A stretch of 64,000 nucleotides of DNA from Antedon mediterranea (lineage: Eukaryota > Animalia > Echinodermata), in assembly GCF_964355755.1 (NCBI RefSeq), contig NC_092677.1, positions 6,160,101 through 6,224,100 on the forward strand, read 5' to 3'. Positions 106 through 51,859 of the stretch are shown here, piece after piece (position 1 is the first letter of the stretch; each line of letters starts with the position of its first letter). Made by a program: the position numbers and the translations under genes. Below the pieces are notes generated by a model. It was not told where the DNA came from. It saw only the letters and a program-made list of their open reading frames with translations, and ran no database searches.

Positions 106-3100
106 GTCATCAATTTCACTATGCCAAACACATTAAAGCATTATGTACATAGGGTTGGCAGGACAGCAAGAGCAGGGCGATCTGGAAGGTATACACAAAT
201 ATGTTCTTCATACCACCATTAATGCCACCTTTTTAACAAATTTGTGTCCGTTATTGTCCACTCTAGTGGATTGTTTTGGCATCATTAAATGCATCTTCTA
301 TACTGTAGTTCAAATAAAGTAAGATTATTCTATAGGTAATGAAAATATCCCTCCTATTTAATAAATTATTAGATAATATGGAAGGAATTTTGCTAAAGTT
401 TTACTTTCTAAATTGTACAAATTTATCAGGTTATGAAACATATTTGTATTGTTTTTTTTTTAGATCTGTGACACTTGTTGGTGAAAAAGAAAGAAGGCTG
501 TTGAAAGAAATAGTTAAACGTGCCAAGCAACCAGTAAAGAGTAGGGTTGTACCACTGGGTAAGTTGATATGCTACTGTTACAACAATTAAACTTTTTATC
601 TATATTTCTAGACAAAAAAGAGAAAACCATAACAAGTCTTGACCTGTGAAACTTGCACAAAACATATTTACTTTCTATCTAATAAATTTGTTGCAAATCT
701 ATGAATGTGAAACCTATACACAATTGCAGGGTTTCAAAATTCAGTATAGTTTATATGGGGTATAAAGCACGGCGCACACTAGAGCTTTCGGCTGAGCCAA
801 CTGGCACGAGTAACACTTAGCTCACTAAAACATTTGCCGCAAATTGTGATCGCGTTCTATCGGACGCACACTAAACGCCTTCAGTACGCGATTTGCTGAT
901 TGGATAGTTACTTAATACGCTATACGGCACGCGCTGACAAATTATAATAAATTAGAACATGTCATGCGCAGTGGAATTTTTTAGTGAGCTATCTGCTTAC
1001 GTTCGGCGCACACTTGAGGAAAATGGCACGCGTATATAAATATTAAACATGATAGATATTTTCCTCAGCGGCACGCGTGGCCGATTCCTGACAAATTCCC
1101 CGGCGCACACTGTGAGCAAAGTGTTACTCGTGCCAGTTGGCTCAGCCGGAAGCTCTAGTGTGCGCCGGGCTTAAGGGAAGCGATCTCTTGTGTTTAATCT
1201 GTGCTGTGCATATCCATATGTCCTGTCTACACTGTCAAACATTATGTGACTAAAATGTGAAAATATTTGAGCATATCACTACCATATTTGGTACTAGTTA
1301 TTGTAGACAGAGCTTTAGAAAAAATCTTCCTGCTAGTAGTAAAAAATATATTTTATGCAATACCTAACTTTTGAACATTAAAAAGAATGAATACATTGCT
1401 CATAAAGATGTGGTGCAGATATCCAAATTAATAAACACTCAAATTCGATTGTACAGTACATACAAATAGAACTGATCAAATGCAAAATTTCATATTTAGA
1501 TGTGATAAAGAAATATTCAGACAAAATTGAGGGTATGGAAGATGATGTGGAGAGGGTAGAAACTATGGAACTGGAAGAGAAAGAACTCCGAACATCTGAG
1601 AACCAATTGAACAGAGCCAAGGCACTGCTAGATAATGACAGAAATGAAGACAAGCAGAAGAGAGTTTGGTTTCAGAATCATAAACAAAGAATGCAATCTA
1701 AAGGTGCTAGATACAATATTATAAATACTGAAGTTGTCTTTAAATGCAATTAAATAATTTATTTACTATTTATATAATGTACAGTAATTTATTTCATAGA
1801 GTTAATAGACAAATAGTAGAGGATGAGATCTGAAATCTTTAAATAAAGAATTTATTTTTTCTATTTTGTTAGTCAATCAAGTGCTAGACAAGGCTGCGTT
1901 AGAACGGAAAACGAAAAAGAAGAAAGGACAAAAATTTAACAAGGAAAAAGAAACTGTAGGTTATTTTTAGTTTACAAGTGTATCGTTTAACTTTCTATAC
2001 CTTGTTTAATGCCATTATATAGTATTACTACTTTGAATAAATAACATTTTATTTAAATAGTTCAGTAAATAAATTAACAATATTTTATTTATTACCATCT
2101 TTTGTTTGTTATTTAGTCGGAAGGAAGGGTGATGGTGGAAATAGAAAAATCTCAATTATTTGCTGCTAGAGCAGCTAAGCGGGATAGAAAGGGTAAACGT
2201 CTACGTGCCTATGATGAAACAGATGCACAATCAAACCATTCAGGTATGATTCTGTGTCTTGTTTTTAGAACCCTTTTTTACATTAGAAAGGGTAAACGTC
2301 TACGTGCCTATGATGAAACAGATGCACAAACTAACCATTCAGGTATGATTCTGTGTCTTGTTTTTAGAACCCTTTTTTACATTAGAAAGGGTAAACGTCT
2401 ACGTGCCTATGATGAAACAGATGCACAATCAAACCATTCAGGTATGATTCTGTGTCTTGTTTTTAGAACCCTTTTTTACATTAGAAAGGGTAAACGTCTA
2501 CGTGCCTATGATGAAACAGATGCACAATCAAACCATTCAGGTATGATTCTGTGTCTTGTTTTTAGAACCCTTTTTTACATTAGAAAGGGTAAACGTCTAC
2601 GTGCCTATGATGAAACAGATGCACAATCAAACCATTCAGGTATGATTCTGTGTCTTGTTTTTAGAACCCTTTTTTACATTAGAAAGGGTAAACGTCTACG
2701 TGCCTATGATGAAACAGATGCACAATCTAACCATTCAGGTATGATTCTGTGTCTTGTTTTTAGAACCCTTTTTTACATTAGAAAGGGTAAACGTCTACGT
2801 GCCTATGATGAAACAGATGCACAATCAAACCATTCAGGTATGATTCTGTGTCTTGTTTTTAGAACCCTTTTTTACATTAGAAAAGGTAAACGTCTACGTG
2901 CCTATGATGAAACAGATGCACAATCTAATCATTCAGGTATGATTCTGTGTCTTGTTTTTAGAACCCTTTTTTACATTAGAAAAGGTAAACGTCTACGTGC
3001 CTATGATGAAACAGATGCACAATCTAATCATTCAGGTATGATTCTGTGTCTTGTTTTTAGAACCCTTTTTTACATTAGAAAGGGTAAACGTCTACGTGCC

Positions 3101-6035
3101 TATGATGAAACAGATGCACAATCTAACCATTCAGGTATGATTCTGTGTCTTGTTTTTAGAACCCTTTTTTACATTAGAAAGGGTAAACGTCTACGTGCCT
3201 ATGATGAAACAGATGCACAATCAAACCATTCAGGTATGATTCTGTGTCTTGTTTTTAGAACCCTTTTTTACATTAGAAAAGGTAAACGTCTACGTGCCTA
3301 TGATGAAACAGATGCACAATCTAATCATTCAGGTATGATTCTGTGTCTTGTTTTTAGAACCCTTTTTTACATTAGAAAAGGTAAACGTCTACGTGCCTAT
3401 GATGAAACAGATGCACAATCTAATCATTCAGGTATGATTCTGTGTCTTGTTTTTAGAACCCTTTTTTACATTAGAAAGGGTAAACGTCTACGTGCCTATG
3501 ATGAAACAGATGCACAATCTAACCATTCAGGTATGATTCTGTGTCTTGTTTTTAGAACCCTTTTTTACATTAGAAAGGGTAAACGTCTACGTGCCTATGA
3601 TGAAACAGATGCACAATCAAACCATTCAGGTATGATTCTGTGTCTTGTTTTTAGAACCCTTTTTTACATTAGAAAAGGTAAACGTCTACGTGCCTATGAT
3701 GAAACAGATGCACAATCAAACCATTCAGGTATGATTCTGTGTCTTGTTTTTAGAACCCTTTTTTACATTAGAAAAGGTAAACGTCTACGTGCCTATGATG
3801 AAACAGATGCACAATCAAACCATTCAGGTATGATTCTGTGTCTTGTTTTTAGAACCCTTTTTTACATTAGAAAAGGTAAACGTCTACGTGCCTATGATGA
3901 AACAGATGCACAATCTAACCATTCAGGTATGATTCTGTGTCTTGTTTTTAGAACCCTTTTTTACATTAGAAAGGGTAAACGTCTACGTGCCTATGATGAA
4001 ACAGATGCACAATCTAACCATTCAGGTATGATTCTGTGTCTTGTTTTTAGAACCCTTTTTTACATTAGAAAGGGTAAACGTCTACGTGCCTATGATGAAA
4101 CAGATGCACAATCAAACCATTCAGGTATGATTCTGTGTCTTGTTTTTAGAACCCTTTTTTACATTAGAAAGGGTAAACGTCTACGTGCCTATGATGAAAC
4201 AGATGCACAATCAAACCATTCAGGTATGATTCTGTGTCTTGTTTTTAGAACCCTTTTTTACATTAGAAAGGGTAAACGTCTACGTGCCTATGATGAAACA
4301 GATGCACAATCAAACCATTCAGGTATGATTCTGTGTCTTGTTTTTAGAACCCTTTTTTACATTAGAAAGGGTAAACGTCTACGTGCCTATGATGAAACAG
4401 ATGCACAATCAAACCATTCAGGTATGATTCTGTGTCTTGTTTTTAGAACCCTTTTTTACATTAGAAAGGGTAAACGTCTACGTGCCTATGATGAAACAGA
4501 TGCACAATCTAATCATTCAGGTATGATTCTGTGTCTTGTTTTTAGAACCCTTTTTTACATTAGAAAGGGTAAACGTCTACGTGCCTATGATGAAACAGAT
4601 GCACAAACTAATCATTCAGGTATGATTCTGTGTCTTGTTTTTAGAACCCTTTTTTACATTAGAAAAGGTAAACGTCTACGTGCCTATGATGAAACAGATG
4701 CACAAACTAATCATTCAGGTATGATTCTGTGTCTTGTTTTTAGAACCCTTTTTTACATTAGAAAGGGTAAACGTCTACGTGCCTATGATGAAACAGATGC
4801 ACAATCTAATCATTCAGGTATGATTCTGTGTCTTGTTTTTAGAACCCTTTTTTACATTTATATATACTGTAATCTTGTAATTATATGCTAAGAATGTCTT
4901 AAAATTGAGAGATTTTTTAAACATTAATACAGTAATTATATTGATCGTCGTGAGGTGGTTTCCCGAATGATCGTAAAATCAAAACGGTACTGGGTATGAC
5001 CAACTAGCGTTATTGTCATCGTGAGGTGGTTTCCCGAATGATCGTAAAATCAAAACGGTACTGGGTATGACTAACTAGCGTTATTGTCACCGGCTAGTCA
5101 TCCATTCATAGAAGTACTAATGTAGTAGCCTACCTGTAACCATAGAATGTGACCCGAGGCATGGCTAACTACGACTTTTAGATGATAGAAAGTTGATTTT
5201 GATTTTACGATCTTTCGGGAAACCACCTCACGATGTAATTATATTGATTTGTCATTCGTTTTTAAAAGAATGGATGAATTCCTATATTTTTTGTATGCAA
5301 GATAAATTATTTACTTTTGAGATATTGTTGCAGATGAAATACTTGCCCATATTATTTATAACAATGATTAACAATTAATTTAATTTACACAGGTGCAAAG
5401 AAAAAGAAGATAAATAAGAAGACGTCATTTGATAATGAGCTAACAGCAACAAGCAAAAACGCTGTCAAACGATTTAGAAGCAAGTGAGTATGAGGTTCGG
5501 TTGTAAATAATAGAAGAGAAAGAATTTACAAATGTAGGCCTACAAAATGCAGTACATGATATATAAAATAGCAGGCTTCATAGACCTTTTTTAAAAACCT
5601 CTTCAATGGTACATGACGGTAACTATTAATATGACATCGTTTAGATGTTTTGCTGCATATTTTTTTTATAATTTTATTTCAAATCTCCATCTTCCAACAG
5701 AGACTTTTATTATCTACTTTATTTAACTAACAAGCAGACCTGTCAAGTCAAGTAGAATGAACATTGATTAAGTATTTTTCTTCCACAGAGCCAATGCCAA
5801 TATTGCAGAGAAATCAAGACAGGAAAAGAAATCCGGCAAGAAATCATCACAATCAAACAAAAGGTTAGGACCATTTTAGGCTTAAATACCAATAACAGTG
5901 TACAAAAGGCTTATTATATTTATATGGAGTTGACCTTGGTGTGTGACCTAAAAAGTTTATTTACCTTGAGTAATAGTAATATCAGAATTAATATTAAATT
6001 GTTTCTTTTACTTTTTCAGATACAACCGGAGGTAA
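106..6035 (+). CDS. DDX27: DEAD-box RNA helicase DDX27/DRS1, 3' part (5' end outside window)
   Basis: Exons 106-188, 464-558, 1500-1703, 1873-1955, 2117-2243, 5393-5483, 5789-5863, 6020-6035 join in frame with GT-AG introns. They give helicase motif VI ([19 protein letters not shown]), the DDX27-like KRVWFQ and SFDNELT segments, and a basic end RYNRR*. Confidence 0.92.
766..1171. mobile_element. PIF/Harbinger-type MITE in DDX27 intron
   Basis: About 60-bp near-perfect TIRs (agc(a/c)cggcgcacactagagctt...), TAA duplicated at 763-765 and 1172-1174, no ORF. Confidence 0.85.
1224..1316. mobile_element. Short MITE-like repeat (related copy at about 42973-43069)
   Basis: Inverted ends ctgtctacac...gtagacag. 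The core catatcactaccatatttgg recurs reverse-complemented in a TMPPE intron. Confidence 0.5.
2185..4857 (+). repeat. Tandem array, 27 x 99 bp, spanning a DDX27 exon 3' end and intron 5' end
   Basis: Unit tagaaagggtaaacgtctacg...cattcag|gtatgattc...ttttacat starts at 2185, 2284, ... 4759. It reads open as 33-aa repeats. Confidence 0.98.
4946..5235. mobile_element. Small TIR element with duplicated left end
   Basis: TIR c(g/a)tcgtgaggtggtttcccgaa-gatcgtaaaatcaaaa with its reverse complement at about 5197-5235. The first 71 bp are tandemly duplicated. Both flanks carry taattatattgat. Confidence 0.8.
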
Positions 6036-42610: not shown

Positions 42611-45426
42611 CTATGCAGAATGCAATGTAATGAGCGTAACTTCTGGTGTTGAAAACATTCGCATTGGTATGCCCCAATAAAACGTGCCGGAAGAAACATA
42701 AACGTAACTCGTTGCACTGTATTGATATAAACCGATAAAATATGGATTTAAAAAGTATACCCATACAATTGCTGGAAACAACTGACCACCATGTGTGTGT
42801 CCTAGAAAGGTACAATATAAAATAGATAGATAATATCAGCGTGATAAGAAACATTACATAATCAGGGGAAGAATTGTCAGCTAAAATGCATTATGTTGTA
42901 TAAGTATAAACTACTTTTGATATCTATTTTTATATTTTATGTTAGGGCTTCCCCGTTAAAAAAAACTGGATCAAATATGGTAGTGGTATGCCCAAATATG
43001 GTAGTGATATGACATCATCATGTCCATTTGGGGACATCACATAAAGTTTGATAGAGTAGACAAGGCTTTAGAATATCAAGACAACATATTATCATCTTGT
43101 GAATTGACAAACCATAAAAGAACTCATGACTCAGATATCACATACCTGAAAGCACTAACTTGATGCCTTTGTCTGCAGAGAGTGCAGAGTATGCAGCACT
43201 TGGTCTGTGAGCCAGAAGAATGATGGCATGTTTTTGGTCTGTGCCTTCAAGAGCCTTATCCAACTTGAAACCATGATCACCGTACCTGCATCAACAAAAT
43301 GCAAGTAGTAGTGATATTAATGTTATTATTGTGACTGTTGTAAAGAAACAACTTCAACTAGACTGGAAGACACATTTGAACAATTATATGGAATATTTTA
43401 AATCTTGAATTTAATTTATAAAAGGGCATAATCAGACATATTCTAATGTTTGATATTTTTTATTGTACCTTTATCTTTTTTATCACAATGTATATACAGT
43501 ATAGGACTTTAACTGTATATTTTTATATTTGTATGTTCAGAATTACAGACTCTACCTTGGCCTTTTTCATGTTTGTTAATATGCAGGTCAAATTTGGGGG
43601 TGGGGGTGGTACAATGGTGCACATAAAATATATAATGGTTTATCCCATTGCAACAACTTATTACTTAAATGTTTCTCCTTGTACATCATCTGTGCCAACT
43701 AAATAGAAGAAATCTTTATCTTGAACTTGATGGCGAATTTTAATGTTTTCGTTATGCAGGCATTTCACACCAAGAGTTTTCAAGTAGACAATCCATGCAT
43801 CTACATCTCCAGTGTAATATTCATGGTTGCCTACAAATACAATAAGATTAATCTCACAATTCTTGCACCTCATTTTCACTGGCATAGATCCTGGGTTAAG
43901 GTAATTCAAGATCCCGGGAGAGGAGATGTAGACCCTGTGAGAGAGAATAAAACACTGGGAGAGGGGATATAGACCCTGGGAGAGGGGATATAGACCGTGG
44001 GAGAAGGGATATATACCATATGGGAGAGGGGATATAGACCCTGGGAGAGGGGATATAGACCCTGGGAGAGGGGATATAGACCCTGGGAGAGGGGATATAG
44101 ACCCTGGGAGAGGAAATATAGACCATGGGAGAGGGGATATAGACCGTGGGAGAAGGGATATATACCATATGGGAGAGGGGATAAAGACCCTTGGAGAGGG
44201 GATAAACACCCTTGGAGAGGGGATAAACACCCTGGGAGAGGGGATAGAGACCCAGGGGAGGGGATCCGATATAGACCGTGGGGAGGGGATATATTTTATA
44301 TGTCCCATTTGCATTTTCTTGTTTGCTTCTAAATGCCCAGTGTCCTAAATACCCAGTGTCCTCCATCTCCACTACTTAAAATGAATCAGGACCTGGCTCA
44401 CTTTGTTACTACGAAGACAACCTGTTTTTTTTAATCTTACCCGTGACAAAATAAGTGCCATATTGTGGATTAAGTTGATTCAAAGGCAATACAGCTTCAG
44501 ATAAGTATGAAACAGGAGCGTCTACTAAATCCCCAGTGATGGACACAAGATCTGTATAAACAAAACAAATACAGTCAGATACTTTTGTTTTTAAACTGTT
44601 ATCTTATGTTAAATTAGGAATTATTGTTGGTGATGATTTATAAATTGAAATACTGTATATATTATTATTTACCTGGATTTAAACTGTTTGTTAGTTCTAC
44701 TGCCCTTTGAAGCTGTGATTTACCTACAGTTGGTCCAAGATGTATATCAGATATTTGCACGATTCTCATACTATCAAAAACTTTTGGGAGATTAGAGATC
44801 GGAATGTTTACTTTTTTAATAATTGGCCCATGGAATGCCCTAGAAACAGCAGTAAATGCAAATATCCCAGACACAAAAACTACCACACACACTTTAAATA
44901 AAGTCATCCATTCGCGATCAGAATTCTTTTTTGGACAGAATATTTTTCGACAAATTGCACTGATTAAAAACCATAGTGCGATGTTTGTGGAAAGTAAAAG
45001 ATGGATTCCCATACAAATATAGGAAAACAAAACTATTTTATATGGTTCGGCAGAAATTAATGTAGCACCTAAAGGGTAACATAACTGAGCGCTTAGTAGG
45101 ACTGTAAATAATACACATTTCCATATAACCTGGAAACGACCTTTATATAAGCTAGGCCGTCTGATTGGCAATATTCCTCTCCTCGCGGCAGATTGCTTCC
45201 CTGTCGCATCGTGATGGCCTGCCTGCTGGGCTGGGTATAATTGCGACAGATTACGCCAAATAAAAAGTGATCCTAACGATAGAAGGGATTCAATAAATAT
45301 GACGATTTGGAATCGTAAAACCAAGGATCGAGTTTTTCGGTCAGAATTTCGAACAGCAAAAGAACTTAGCAAAAGAAAGAGCACTAAAGAACAGAACAAC
45401 ACCGACAACTTTTTAACGCCAGGCAT
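42611..45426 (-). CDS. TMPPE: Transmembrane protein with metallophosphoesterase domain, about 453 aa
   Basis: Exons 45426-44673, 44551-44441, 43830-43665, 43285-43146, 42801-42611. N-terminal TM helices, then calcineurin-like motifs SDIHLG, TGDLVD, GNHEYY, LAH, SGHTHGGQ. Confidence 0.93.
43914..44295. repeat. 21-bp G-rich minisatellite in TMPPE intron 2
   Basis: Units ccctgggagaggggatataga and variants. Confidence 0.92.
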
Positions 45427-46140
45427 GATAATGATGATAAAAATAACAACTGTTGGTAACTTAGTTAAGTTCAGATAGATTACAAAACGCGATCGTTCCC
45501 TACCGCAATAACCCCATGTTTTATCAGAATCAATAATGAAGCATATTGCCGACGTATTTTTTCTTTTTCCCGCGCGAAGTCTCAATGTATAATTTATCAA
45601 GTAATGCTAATATAACCATATCCTCCATGTGCTAACTTTATAAGAAAAGCAAAAAATCTCAGCCAGGTCTACTCATATGAGTTACGTAGGGTCCAAAACT
45701 TGAAACCATTTATTAATGTATTAATTACCTCTGTAGTGTATGTTCTAACTAATAAAAATATGAACAACTAGAATTTGCAGTTACATTTTTTTTTAATAAC
45801 AATTTTTCAGAAACTTTCTATTATTAATATTACAGTTTCACAGATTTTTTTTTACAATTTTTGTTCAAAGGAATCAATATTTGTGAATGGGCATTATAAC
45901 CAAAAACAAATTATTTTAAAACAAGAAATAACGCCGTAAAATAAGCTTACAATTTATTTTAAGTAAGATTTTGCTGTGTATTGACGATTTTTAATGATTT
46001 TGCAATATATTTTAATTTATTTTGTTATAGTATTATATGCATTTTTATATGTTTATACTGAGACAACAATCAAAGAGATTGGAAACGCTAGCGATTTCCC
46101 TTTGTGTGGCACTTGCCGCCAGGTTCAGTGTAGTATACCT

Positions 46141-46155
46141 CTTTGTTATGCAAAT
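46141..46155 (+). promoter_or_regulatory. Sox-POU composite motif in left subterminal region
   Basis: CTTTGTTATGCAAAT, followed by CCAAT at about 46171 and a splice donor (cg|gtaaga) at 46290. Confidence 0.5.
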
Positions 46156-46783
46156 TAGCTAAGTCACCGGCCAATCAGCGAATTCGCGCAAGCGCAGATT
46201 AACTGTTTATCAAAATCAGTGATCCATGAAAAAAGTTTTTGGAGGGGTTTTTAAATCTCACGAGCAGGAGATAAACAACGAAATATACGGTAAGACTATA
46301 GGTGTTTATAAACATTATTTATGTTGTTTAAAAATGTTAAATTAGGTATTAATTTTTTTCTGTAAAAATGATTATTAACACCAGAGTACAACACTACAAG
46401 AATTAATTGGAAAAAAAAAAAGATTTCTTTGGGATAATTATCAAATATTAGCCTACATATAATAGGCCTACAGCAGTAGCCTAGTAGGCCTATTCATTTA
46501 GCCAGCCCAGCATATTTATTATTAATTATTTTATTAGGCCCCTATTATAGGCCTAGGCTAATTATTAATAAATACTAGGCCAAGGCCCTAGCCTATAGGT
46601 GTAGTAGTATAGTAGGCCTAGAGGTTAGGTTCAATAAGGCATTCATTCATTCTTAAGTGTATGCCTATAATTATTAGGCTATGTCACATAATGTTAATAA
46701 TTTTAAATCAGGGTAAATTAAAGAGCAATATACGATATAAATAAATGAGAAAGCTCGTCAATTAGGTTTTTTTTTTTTCAGTT

Positions 46784-47755
46784 ATGGCAACAAAATCAAC
46801 AGCCTGTAGGCCTAGTCCTTTACCACTTACCACTGCCAAGGAAATTAATGAAGATTTGCCACACATGGTGACAGATGCACTGAACATATTAGTAACCGAT
46901 GACATTCACCATGCATCATGGTCCAAGTGTGGTTCAGGTGTGATCTCAATTGCAAAATCAATATTAGAGAATCAATCTGAAATAAATATGTTTTTATCGG
47001 AAGAGATTATGGATAGTCTGCTGCAGCCCACAGCTGCAGATATCCTAAAAGCTGTTTTCCAGCTGAGGATAAACAGAAAGTTTATTCATGATTTTTTGAA
47101 TAAGATAATTACTAATATTAATAATACAGAAACTGAAAAGGAGGCTTTTGTTCAAAGATTTTTGACCTGCATAACTACATCATTTTTTAAACGACAAAAT
47201 GAAAAAATTGAAGTAAGATATAATATGGAAATAGAGTTAGTAACTACAGCAGACAAGCAAATCATCCATCATATTACAGGTTCTATTATAAGAAAATTGA
47301 AAAAAAGGTACATGAACAAGCCAGTTGAAAGAGAGATGCTTAGCAATCTGACCACTGATAATGGTGTAGACAGTAGATGTTCATGGACACAAAGTTTGGA
47401 CAGAGGCGGTTTGATTTACCCCTCAACAAAATTTCTTAATTTAATTATTTTAATTGAGCGTTGGATTAGGGAGTTAATAAACAGTGAAAGTTTACAACAT
47501 GATTCTTTAATTAACATAAAGTCTACAATACTAAAGTATAAACTGGTAACACATATATGGAGTAACCTTATAACCTCACCAAATACACAGAAATGGATAG
47601 TGTTGGACAATGTTGTTGAGTTATTTTTAAAAATTAGAGGGTTTGCTTTAACTGAACAACTTAAAAGCAAAATGCAAAAAAAACAAAAGCAACAAAAACT
47701 TGCTGCCGGAACTAAAAAAGCATTAAGAAAAGAACTAAAAGAATTAAACAAGTAA
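46784..47755 (+). CDS. Transposon second protein, 323 aa; C-terminal half resembles the P/THAP9 transposase C-terminal domain
   Basis: Intact ORF with an acceptor (ttttttcag) just before the ATG. Motifs HITGSIIRKL, DRGGLIYPSTKF, IERWIR, VELFLKIRG. Basic tail. Confidence 0.8.
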   Translation: MATKSTACRPSPLPLTTAKEINEDLPHMVTDALNILVTDDIHHASWSKCGSGVISIAKSILENQSEINMFLSEEIMDSLLQPTAADILKAVFQLRINRKFIHDFLNKIITNINNTETEKEAFVQRFLTCITTSFFKRQNEKIEVRYNMEIELVTTADKQIIHHITGSIIRKLKKRYMNKPVEREMLSNLTTDNGVDSRCSWTQSLDRGGLIYPSTKFLNLIILIERWIRELINSESLQHDSLINIKSTILKYKLVTHIWSNLITSPNTQKWIVLDNVVELFLKIRGFALTEQLKSKMQKKQKQQKLAAGTKKALRKELKELNK

Positions 47756-47854
47756 AATGAAAAATAAGCTATATGCTGTAATTTATTAACTGGAGTACTG
47801 TAAATGTTTTGTGCAAAATAAAAAAAAAGTCAAATTTACTATTATAAAATGCTA

Positions 47855-50492
47855 TTAAGACTTTTTTACTCTGCGTTTAAGTGGAATGTTTAAATTTTCT
47901 TTGTCCAATTCAGACATAATTCGCTTAGTGTTGCCTCTTATGGGTGCAACTGCTGCTGACCCAACAACCCTAAGTGTATTTAATGTATGTCGAACATTAT
48001 CAATTGTTGGATTGTCACCTGCTCCCTGTTTGTGTCTATAATGTCCAAAGTGCTGTTCGAGTACATCTTGATTAAACACACACGTATTTACAAATTTGGC
48101 TCCTTTTCCCAACAAATAACGAACACATGCTACAATAGAATTAATGGTGATATGAAAGCCATGTATGGTTTGCTGACTTAGTAACATACGCTTTCTTTCT
48201 GCATCAGCAAATTTTCCTACTCGTTCTTTTACATCATTTTCCCATTGCTCAAGGTATCCTAAAAACTCTGTCTCTAAATATGAAAGTCTTGGATCATGGA
48301 TGTCTTTGTATGGATTTAAGTCTGTGTTTCTGGATAACTTACCAGCGTTATTGTTTCTTGTATTTAAGCAATCAAAAAAGCGATTCATGTGAGTTATGAA
48401 GGTGATTGTTTCTCTTGCACTGTCACCATATACTTCTTTCATGTGCTGTGCAACTCTGTTACTGAAAACTTGAGCAGCTAAATTGACTTTCATCACACTG
48501 AAAGGGGTGAGGTCAATATGTGCTCTTGTTAGTTTTGTTTTTTTATACAATTTTCCTTCTGTGTGTTCTTCAAACAGTTGAACTAAACTCATCCATGAAA
48601 TGTTCTGTCCACCTTTCCACAGATTTCTTGATTTTTTGTGACTACCAGAATTTGAAAAACAATTTCTAGCTGTTTTTAGCAGATGAGGGACATCTGAAAT
48701 AAAATATAGATTCCGATTTGGAGCAAAAGGATTTGTACAACTAAACTTGTTTTTAAGCCCATGAGAATCAAAAAATGATCTATTCTGGCTAGCACCATCA
48801 CATGTAAGATACAAAACTTTCAGTCCAACATCTATTTCAAGTAGTTCAATGGCTCTCCATAAAATTGTGTGGAGATCTTCAGAACGTAGTCCATTTGTTG
48901 CAAAAACTGCCAATGGAAATTTTAAGTTACTTGTTGCCCCTCGTACCATAATAACTAATGCACTTTTTGCCATCTCATTGGTGATTTCATTTTTCTTATT
49001 TTCAATTTTGTGAATCTCATTGCTTATGTTATCTAAATTTGTAAATCCAATCAATTCATTAGTGGAGGCAGAATATACCAAGTCTTCTTTTATTTTAATT
49101 TCATCCTGTAAAATTCCAACATATGATCGCCATTCTTCAGTAAAGAGTCCTTTTCTTTTAGCCTCCTCGTGTAGCATTTCTAAAACTTCTTTCTGGTAAC
49201 CTAATTTACTATCAATGACGTGGCTATAATCATATAATGTTCTTTCACTTGGTAAACTTATAAAACCAGTTTCTCTCAGTGCTTGATATGCAGTTGAAGA
49301 TTTAGATTTCAAGTACAAAGCCCATTTCACAATAATAGGATGCCACCTCATCTGTCTTTTCTCTTTTAACTTGTTGAATTTTAATTGTTCTTCCCAAAAT
49401 ATTCTTTGAAATGAATCAGGATCTCGAAACAAATTGTTGAAAGCATTTTCTCCTTCTTGAATAATAGTTTCTAGGTCACCATTAGAATCATCTGTCAGTT
49501 CATTGTTCTTATATTTTTGATTAATTTCCTGATTAATTAATATTTGCTTTTTTTTTCTTTCAACACTTTGACATTGTTTTTTTAGCATCTTACTTTTAAT
49601 TAATAAATCATTTTTAGTCAAACTGGTATTAGGCCTTTTAGATGACAATAATACTTCAAATGACTGATTGTGTTTCATAGATTTTCGCAATGATCGTCTG
49701 TATGTTGCACAATGGGGGCACCTGTTTGTTAAAGTAGTTAAAAGGAAGCAGCGATCAGTTCGGATTGTTTGTGTGTATTCTGCTCCACAGTCATGTTCCA
49801 CATACTTGTTTTCCTGCAATGCAGTTAAGTCAGGATTTCCTATGCACACAGTATATTTATCAAACAAGAATTTTAAAAACATGAATAAATGATTAAACAC
49901 ATGCACCTTCCGTATACTTTCAAATATTGTATGATTATCAGGTAAGCGCTTGTTATGAACGATTACGGTTATATTCAAGTTTTTGTCAATAGTAACTGCC
50001 ATCTTAACAGAAAAAAAACGTTTCTCATAGAACTGAATGAGTGTCAGATCACTAGTTGCCTTAATGACTTCAAAACCAATGTTATTCAGCTTTTCTTGTT
50101 TCCTTGTGCAATCAAATCGCAACTGCTGGTATGTCACATAATTGATGTTATCTTCTGTCTCAAGTTTTGTCAATGAAGATCCAAGTACTAAATAACTCTC
50201 AATTGGTTCCTTATGTTCCTGCAATACACACAGAAACACTCATTTATAACCACACTATAATGATTAAATACTTTATACAATCTTTTTACACAACCTATGT
50301 ACTTACTTCAAGCAGTGGTTCATTGTGTACACTATGAACAACACAATCACAATTTGCAAAATTTCCAGTGAAGTCACAATGCTTAACTTGCTCAATTGGC
50401 TGACGAGTGAGTGGTTTTCGTTGAGATGGAAGACCATTAACACAATATTTGTATCGTCTACCAATTAATGCTTTTCTTTTTTTTCTTGTCAT
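47855..50492 (-). CDS. P-element/THAP9-family transposase, about 849 aa, two coding exons
   Basis: Exons 50492-50307 and 50218-47855 (phase 0, GT-AG). Motifs LPSERTL, QDEIKIKEDLVY, TCDGASQN, DVPHLLKTARN, MKVNLAAQVFS, FFDCLN, QDVLEQHFG. No stops or frameshifts. Confidence 0.92.
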
Positions 50493-51531
50493 GATCTGTT
50501 ATAAATAAAAGAAAACATTGATCATTGGTTTGCACTGGTTTCTGTACATGCATTTCAGGCACTTACTTCTAGGCAAGAAACACTAAAGCCCCACTAAGCA
50601 ATATAATAATCCCCCTCACCCTCACCCCCCTCACCCTCACTTCCCCAACCAATTTTGTTTGACCCCACCCAACTACCATTCCATACTACTGCACACCAAA
50701 TAGAGCAGTAAAAACAAGTTTGGAAATAGGATCAATTTGATTTGACAAGGTAAAAGCTAGCCTAGCCTAGACTTAATTTAGGCGAAATTACGCTAATGAA
50801 TGCATATGAATCCCTGTGACTAGCCCTGGCTAAATAAGGCCATGCGATGACATTGGGCCTACTCTAAGGAAAATATATTGAATAAATACAAATTTCAAAT
50901 GATTAAAAAATACACGCATACCAACATTTATATATTTAACTATCATTAAAAGGTAAGTAAGTGATACAATATCATAAATAAGATAAAGATTTTTTTGTTC
51001 CAAATGTGACACAATTACGATTGTGTATTTAGCGTATTTAGCGAAAACTTTAAAAAACCAGTAAAATCATCATACTTAATTACATATTAAACATTACTTT
51101 TTCCTAATAAATTGTACATCATACCACAGAAAAATAGTTATTCTATCATAATAAAACTCATTAATTACACAAGAGTGTCTTTTAGTAAAATTGCAATGCT
51201 CTCAAAAACTGGTGTTTTAAGTAGCCGTTCCGACAACGACACACTAACCCAGTCTAGATGGGGTAGTCCATCTACGGTTGTCTACGAGTCTAGAACTACC
51301 CTACTTTGCAGACCAAGTTCTACTAAAACAAGATTAATTTTTCTTTTAAAAAACAGTTAAATACCAAACATTATTTAAAACTCTTACCTTTTAATATCCT
51401 AAAAATATAATTTGAAGTTCAAATTAAGCGTAATTTGCTGAAGGAAATCTGGTAAACTGTTACTGTCTCGTATATTGCGAAGCGATCGCGTGCGATCTCC
51501 GTCGAGTGGATTTTTCTCGAGCGCACACTTA

Positions 51532-51546
51532 ATTTACATAACAATG
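51532..51546 (-). promoter_or_regulatory. Sox-POU composite motif in right subterminal region
   Basis: Minus strand CATTGTTATGTAAAT, upstream of a minus-strand donor (aag|gtaaga) at 51387. Confidence 0.45.
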
Positions 51547-51859
51547 AAACTACTAAGACGAAATAAGTAGATCAAAGGGAACCGACAAGCGTTTCCAATC
51601 TCTTTGATTGTTGTCTCAGGTTTATACAAATTTTATTCTAAATGTTTTTTATACAATCAGTGACCTAGGCCTACTACCCTAGGCCTAGATAGTGATTAAG
51701 TTCGCTTTTTAGGAATCCTGTCTCTGCCTGGTTTTGTGTGATGTTTTCTTGTTATTTGTCCATGTTTTTTTTATTGTATAAATTTATGAGAGAAAATAAA
51801 TGAAATGAAATGAAAAAAAGCCACAGTTAACACCGGTCTCCAACTTCACAGACATCACA

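Follow-up and report, generated by a model that had tools for sequence, protein, structure and literature searches.

A P-superfamily transposon of Antedon mediterranea with two convergent genes and a candidate split transposase

Here we show that the window we analyzed, a stretch of 64,000 nucleotides from the echinoderm Antedon mediterranea (NCBI RefSeq assembly GCF_964355755.1, contig NC_092677.1, positions 6,160,101 to 6,224,100 of the forward strand), contains at positions 46058-51619 a 5,562-bp transposon with two open, convergent open reading frames (ORFs). The minus-strand gene encodes a transposase of the P superfamily that ends shortly after its catalytic core, and the plus-strand gene, ORF2, encodes a separate protein of which residues 151-300 are homologous to the C-terminal domain (CTD) of the Drosophila P transposase. 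The reading we favor, with moderate confidence, is that the two convergent genes make a split P transposase, in which the ORF2 protein docks in trans as a second subunit. Judged from its sequence, the element is real and intact and has probably moved recently, and it belongs to a two-gene P lineage that is widespread.

Results

The minus-strand ORF (47855-50239) is open over 794 amino acids (aa). Its main exon (47855-50218, minus strand) encodes 787 aa that comprise an N-terminal region, a helix-turn-helix (HTH), an RNase H core with a GTP-binding insertion and a 66-aa tail, and no CTD. All the P-type core motifs that a first-pass annotation of the DNA had read in this ORF are present (QDEIK, CDGA, DVPH, MKVNLAAQVFS, FDCLN and QDVLEQHF). 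The catalytic region (48056-49105, minus strand) includes two Asp codons (49103-49105 and 48797-48799), the DxxH motif (48683-48694) and the catalytic Glu (48056-48058), and the catalytic acids and the DxxH form invariant columns, unchanged in 33 out of 33 aligned sequences. Three Pfam families match here, PF21787 and PF21788 (E 6.5e-18) above the cut-off and PF21789 below it, and a phmmer search matched the transposase to the core of the Drosophila P transposase (6p5a_A, E 1.5e-14). The protein thus has a P-type RNase H DDE core with DxxH together with the GTP-binding insertion domain PF21788, from which the use of GTP is predicted.

The first-pass annotation had placed the stop codon about 60 aa past the catalytic Glu; the tail is indeed short, with a measured length of 66 aa. 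Among the best 120 of 234 transposase homologues, 109 have kept the Glu, while 10 are fragmentary at this position and one has a Lys. Since all 109 Glu-bearing homologues end 43-85 aa past it, the short tail is a trait of the clade and not a local lesion. The tail itself is conserved (R494, G506 and N507 at 91-96%), and so are its closing motif and the stop. A CTD in cis was found in none of the 120 transposases by profile search (best E 0.88), and PF12596 in none of the 54 that were scanned. It had also been considered that the transposase might splice onto a further C-terminal exon; no such exon was found, the downstream minus-strand frames inside the element reaching at most 47, 137 and 65 aa. 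One record, P0283 (1,430 aa), was examined as a possible fused form and rejected, because the additional residues lie at the N-terminus and the tail measures 72 aa. The named sources of short-tailed transposases are molluscs, echinoderms, hemichordates, thrips, a sponge and jellyfish.

The N-terminus of the transposase differs from that of canonical P and THAP9 proteins, which start with a C2CH THAP domain. THAP (PF05485) was detected at E<=0.01 in none of the 54 transposases, in a scan that left out the short predicted first exon. In its place, the region encoded at 49508-50161 (minus strand) contains four invariant cysteines, a predicted RWD/E2-like alpha-beta domain and a long coiled-coil-like helix; its structural model (pLDDT 89) consists of an alpha-beta domain followed by this long helix. 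The RWD/E2-like fold matches are weak (best Z 7.9), Foldseek returned no match at E<=0.001, and no THAP structure is among the listed fold matches, which a THAP fold could nevertheless have escaped.

ORF2 (46784-47755, plus strand) encodes an all-helical protein of 323 aa, counted from its ATG. The three CTD motifs attributed to it, HITGSIIRKL, DRGGLIYPS and LFLKIRG, were found, and they correspond to three consensus blocks that a 2026 preprint gives for the CTD (10.64898/2026.08.31.747927). Two independent lines of evidence, both proposed as checks in the first-pass annotation, establish that residues 151-300 (47234-47683, plus strand), which are followed by a basic C-terminal helix, are a homologue of the Drosophila CTD. 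Firstly, a profile built from 148 family members had 6p5a_B as its top match in the Protein Data Bank (PDB), with an E value of 9.4e-7 (the next match 0.21), and 36 of these 148 members match PF12596 (Tnp_P_element_C) at E<=0.1 (best 1.8e-5). Secondly, in the AlphaFold model of ORF2 (pLDDT 91.4) residues 151-300 superimpose on residues 617-734 of 6p5a_B over 116 of 118 residues, with a root-mean-square deviation of 2.4 A and a Z score of 11.1; for a helical protein a Z of 11 falls short of the caution level of the tool (about 13), and it needs the backing of the profile match, which is independent. Among 48,161 chains, 6p5a_B was the only one to reach Z>=8 with the ORF2 model, the next best having a Z of 6.6. 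The N-terminal part of ORF2 was rightly described as unrecognised: residues 18-150 (46835-47233, plus strand) form a helical, family-conserved domain without a clear solved match (best Z 6.6).

A profile of five ORF2 sequences found no match in Pfam or PDB; at E<=0.001 it retrieved 2,742 clusters, of which the best 150 measure 113-480 aa and contain no transposase core. ORF2 relatives in named genomes are annotated as separate proteins of 418-492 aa, either uncharacterized or C2H2-type. The segment after residue 285 (the last 38 residues) is net basic in all 141 scorable members (net +3 to +12), and it matches the basic target-binding helix described for the canonical CTD (PMC7776569). An N-terminal C2H2 finger is present in 13 of the 150 relatives, including P0135, P0137 and P0139, and at six of the related loci (L004, L020, L024, L032, L037 and L058); it often sits behind an acidic, Trp-containing motif, and none was found in the element of the window. 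The possibility that ORF2 is a duplicate of a part of its own transposase was rejected (hhalign probability 0.7%). Among longer proteins (768-2190 aa) none matched the ORF2 profile at E<=0.01, which is weak evidence, and the search thus yielded no one-gene P transposases.

Does this pair of genes occur elsewhere? The locus counts that follow concern the best 80 of 416 transposase loci from one metagenome scan. At 27 of the 80 loci the transposase is followed by an ORF2 homologue on the other strand, so that many related elements from marine and other samples share the convergent layout; these loci form 21 groups at 90% DNA identity. At one locus ORF2 lies upstream, head to head, and the remaining 52 have none, most of these loci being too short. 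When only loci whose transposase reaches its end are taken, all 12 that extend at least 4 kb downstream have a convergent ORF2; the share is 20 of 23 for a minimum of 2 kb and 23 of 28 for a minimum of 1.5 kb. Nine loci bounded by terminal inverted repeats (TIRs) were examined. Five of them have a perfect 7-bp target-site duplication (TSD) around both genes, three of these belonging to one family and two having needed 1-2 outer bases trimmed; the other four have no TSD. The head-to-head locus (L001:4371-8617), around which no TIRs were found, groups in both trees with the genes of the window and of the convergent loci, which indicates that the gene order can change.

The two genes also diverged together. 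In a set of 21 loci plus the window, from which seven near-duplicate or fragmentary loci were left out, ORF2 and transposase distances are correlated (Mantel test, Spearman rho 0.64, reached in 0 of 5,000 permutations), and the nearest neighbors agree in 11 of 22 cases. Fourteen of the 16 splits drawn for ORF2 recur in the transposase tree, itself obtained by a quick search, while two are unresolved and none conflict. The proposed test of selection gave a ratio of nonsynonymous to synonymous divergence (dN/dS) for ORF2 of about 0.09-0.13 in five of the six pairs above 50% identity, in all five of which dS is near saturation. ORF2 is under purifying selection and co-diverges with the transposase; its identity to the nearest loci is about 20%, compared with about 50% for the transposase. 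Four couples of transposase and ORF2 records (P0005/P0126, P0007/P0125, P0096/P0135 and P0017/P0276) lie on same-sized contigs, which suggests the same pairing in further genomes, including those of Ptychodera flava and Haliotis cracherodii. No relatives were found in viral contigs or plasmids.

The boundaries of the element agree with the perfect TIRs and the 7-bp TSD of the first-pass annotation. Sequence self-comparison shows that the left TIR (46058-46089, plus strand) and the right TIR (51588-51619, minus strand) are complementary at 32 out of 32 positions (47 bp at 89%), and GTTTATA is present at both 46051-46057 and 51620-51626. Since the core, the TIRs and the TSD fit, the element belongs to the P superfamily. 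The window holds no second copy of it. In contigs of runs X1 and X9 the two flanks are joined with one copy of the 7-mer, which is the empty-site form of a multicopy host repeat; therefore, the TSD arose on insertion into this repeat, the contigs possibly representing paralogous repeat copies rather than the window locus. In run X1, which may come from the source of the window itself, the TIR is attached to at least four flanks unlike the right flank of the window, and runs X5, X6 and X7 add further ones, so that the element family is multicopy. The surrounding host sequence (45939-46057 and 51620-51771) is a high-copy repeat, with deep contig cover, many loose ends and empty-site joints in organisms A and B, and it is possibly a miniature inverted-repeat transposable element (MITE). 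In contigs of X1, X5 and X9, 47381-47870 is swapped for 28-30 other letters; this internal deletion variant, from which the end of ORF2 is removed, is common to organisms A and B. The copy of the element in organism B is about 97-99% identical; its transposase has several indels in run X6, and its TIR is joined to other flanks. This points either to a close relative or to horizontal transfer.

Inside the element the genes are, as claimed, intact and tail to tail: both ORFs are open, and their stop codons lie 99 nt apart (47756-47854). Poly(A)-like hexamers at 47817 (plus strand) and 47787 (minus strand) would give the two genes overlapping 3' ends. Splice signals predict a short first coding exon for each gene. 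For ORF2 it covers 46226-46289 (plus strand; 21 codons and 1 nt) and would be joined in frame across a GT-AG intron (46290-46781), giving 345 aa. For the transposase it covers 50307-50492 (minus strand; 62 aa), separated from the main exon by a phase 0 GT-AG intron of 88 nt (50219-50306), giving 849 aa in total; contigs of X5, a run only guessed to be RNA, extend into this intron.

Elsewhere in the window, an exon of a host membrane metallophosphoesterase-like gene (44665-45606, minus strand), presumably resembling TMPPE and without a Pfam match, lies about 450 bp to the left of the element. Pfam further identified an aquaporin gene (PF00230; 7401-8111, plus strand) and a pyridine nucleotide-disulphide oxidoreductase gene (PF13738; 60471-61529, plus strand) of the host. 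At 2185-4858 a 99-bp unit is repeated 27 times in tandem (98% matches), and one frame of this array is open over 924 aa; the array is probably a satellite or a series of repeated exon-intron units.

Discussion

The transposase of the window lacks exactly the domain that is present in ORF2, and we favor the view that this domain works from a second chain. On this reading the transposase would cut and join DNA as that of Drosophila P does, and the ORF2 CTD would occupy the canonical place of the CTD between the RNase H and GTP-binding domains, with its basic last helix touching the target DNA. The N-terminal domain of ORF2, and the C2H2 finger of some relatives, may replace the covalent linker by binding the conserved short tail of the transposase; alternatively, they may add DNA or chromatin targeting. 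ORF2 would then make the reaction more efficient or steer integration, and would take no part in catalysis. From the sequences, binding of ORF2 to the transposase is likely, and a CTD-type domain can plausibly be supplied in trans.

Several observations speak against this reading, in addition to the fold score below the caution level and the near-saturated dS values given above. Firstly, the single ORF2 sequence had no match in Pfam or PDB, and Foldseek, whose list did not include 6p5a_B, found none for it at E<=0.001. Secondly, ORF2 was not found at five of the 28 loci with at least 1.5 kb of downstream sequence (L002, L008, L027, L056 and L069), nor in a frameshift-tolerant search of these five. 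One of them, L069:338-5657, is a counter-example that has 51-bp perfect TIRs, a frameshifted transposase, no detectable ORF2 and no TSD; it is probably a deletion derivative. Thirdly, the ORF2 genes of the close copies L077 and L080 have a dN/dS of about 0.9, as is expected of decay after insertion. Finally, deletion of the CTD left excision and integration by Drosophila P unchanged in HEK293 cells and raised THAP9 integration by about 60% (preprint 10.64898/2026.08.31.747927), so that the CTD may be auxiliary or even inhibitory.

Because the preprint finds the canonical CTD dispensable, a regulatory role of ORF2 is a real rival, even if we consider it rather unlikely. In that case ORF2 would be expressed on its own to regulate the element, most likely by inhibiting it or keeping its copy number in check. 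It would bind the transposase or the DNA of the element and be dispensable for transposition, and the split would let the element set the levels of enzyme and brake independently. Separate promoters and the possibly overlapping 3' ends suit regulation, and the loci that miss ORF2 fit a dispensable protein. However, its retention in 12 out of 12 loci that have enough downstream sequence, the congruence of the trees at about 20% identity and the purifying selection are easier to explain if ORF2 aids the spread of its own element, given that a trans-acting brake would be expected to be lost often. The retained basic, DNA-contacting helix also argues against a mere brake.

We give considerably less weight to the idea that ORF2 is a captured passenger, or what remains of another P element nested here, and that its role has nothing to do with the transposase. 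This would account for its far faster divergence and for an N-terminal half without a counterpart in P transposases. It would not account for the exact complementarity, by which the domain missing from one gene is the domain of the other, or for the fixed position, congruent trees and purifying selection, and no internal TIR pair surrounds ORF2. It is very improbable that the genes only look split and that both parts are united in one transcript or polypeptide by trans-splicing or through an exon that was missed: the gene models are predictions, but the genes lie on opposite strands (head to head in L001), and the transposase tail closes with its conserved motif and stop. Moreover, ORF2 starts from an ATG of its own and has a 150-aa N-terminal domain, an N-terminal zinc finger occurs in relatives, and relatives in named genomes are annotated as separate proteins.

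How does the element compare with known systems? Canonical P and THAP9 transposases make a 17-nt staggered cleavage and carry out GTP-dependent strand transfer. The element of the window resembles Drosophila melanogaster P (PDB 6P5A/6PE2) and THAP9 in its DDE core, DxxH and GTP-binding insertion, and Drosophila P also in TIRs of about 31-32 bp and in the fold and three motifs of the CTD. In contrast to both, its clade has no THAP domain (54 out of 54 transposases scanned) and no CTD in cis; in the window the CTD comes from a second gene of opposite orientation, which also encodes an additional N-terminal domain. Its TSD measures 7 bp, unlike the 8 bp of Drosophila P. The 1360/Hoppel and Galileo elements, compared by description only, share a P-type transposase and, as excerpted, the 7-bp TSD with our element (PMC3698922). 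The excerpts describe one transposase gene without introns for both and mention no second gene.

The first-pass annotation had likened the layout to that of ProtoRAG. RAG2L has an unrelated accessory fold and is not known to be a split-off piece or detached domain of a transposase, and the RAGL transposase is of the Transib type. In our element the Pfam and PDB matches are P-type only, and the all-helical ORF2 protein resembles the P CTD. The comparison holds for the convergent layout alone, ProtoRAG and RAGL elements of marine invertebrates having two convergent genes inside TIRs and TSDs according to PMC7204232.

Two-gene layouts also exist in MuDR (mudrA and mudrB) and PIF/Harbinger elements, whose second proteins are MURB and a Myb/SANT protein, and Kolobok elements have TTAA as their target. 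In our element the TSDs are variable 7-mers and ORF2 is a homologue of the P CTD. Like our element, these three groups combine a DDE transposase with a second element-encoded protein. In the excerpts of PMC9587614, KolobokP encodes its second protein downstream on the complementary strand, and the second proteins of the Kolobok group (Kol0 with KolX; KolobokP) have a cytoplasmic-ballast fold or are a His-Me nuclease. As far as these partial descriptions go, the second proteins of Kolobok, MuDR and PIF/Harbinger, unlike ORF2, are not homologous to any domain of the transposases of one-gene relatives.

No description of a two-gene P element or of a stand-alone P CTD was found by full-text searches of the literature or in the excerpted text of PMC10824691, and the preprint on the CTD discusses neither (10.64898/2026.08.31.747927). 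Since Repbase, Dfam and subscription papers were outside our search, the architecture may have been catalogued before. We tentatively speculate, as a possibility that we hold to be less probable than the favored reading, that a P lineage so far undescribed, very large and of ancient origin (2,742 ORF2-like clusters; short-tailed transposases in a sponge, in jellyfish and in molluscs, echinoderms, hemichordates and thrips), depends on two proteins for its transposase. The CTD would be a detachable subunit that activates or targets integration and has an N-terminal domain of its own, often with a C2H2 finger. The one-chain transposases of Drosophila P and THAP9 may then derive from such a pair by fusion and capture of a THAP domain.

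P is a textbook one-gene transposon, and the role of its CTD is unsettled, this domain being DNA-contacting in the cryo-EM structure versus dispensable or inhibitory in the preprint. A natural lineage in which the CTD is a separate protein makes that role testable by adding or omitting one gene, and if it is true that ORF2 steers or gates integration, the pair could serve as a two-key transposon tool. The split P transposase would be the second widespread two-component DDE transposase in animals, beside RAG1L/RAG2L, and it would explain a large family of "uncharacterized" invertebrate proteins of 300-480 aa as transposon genes.

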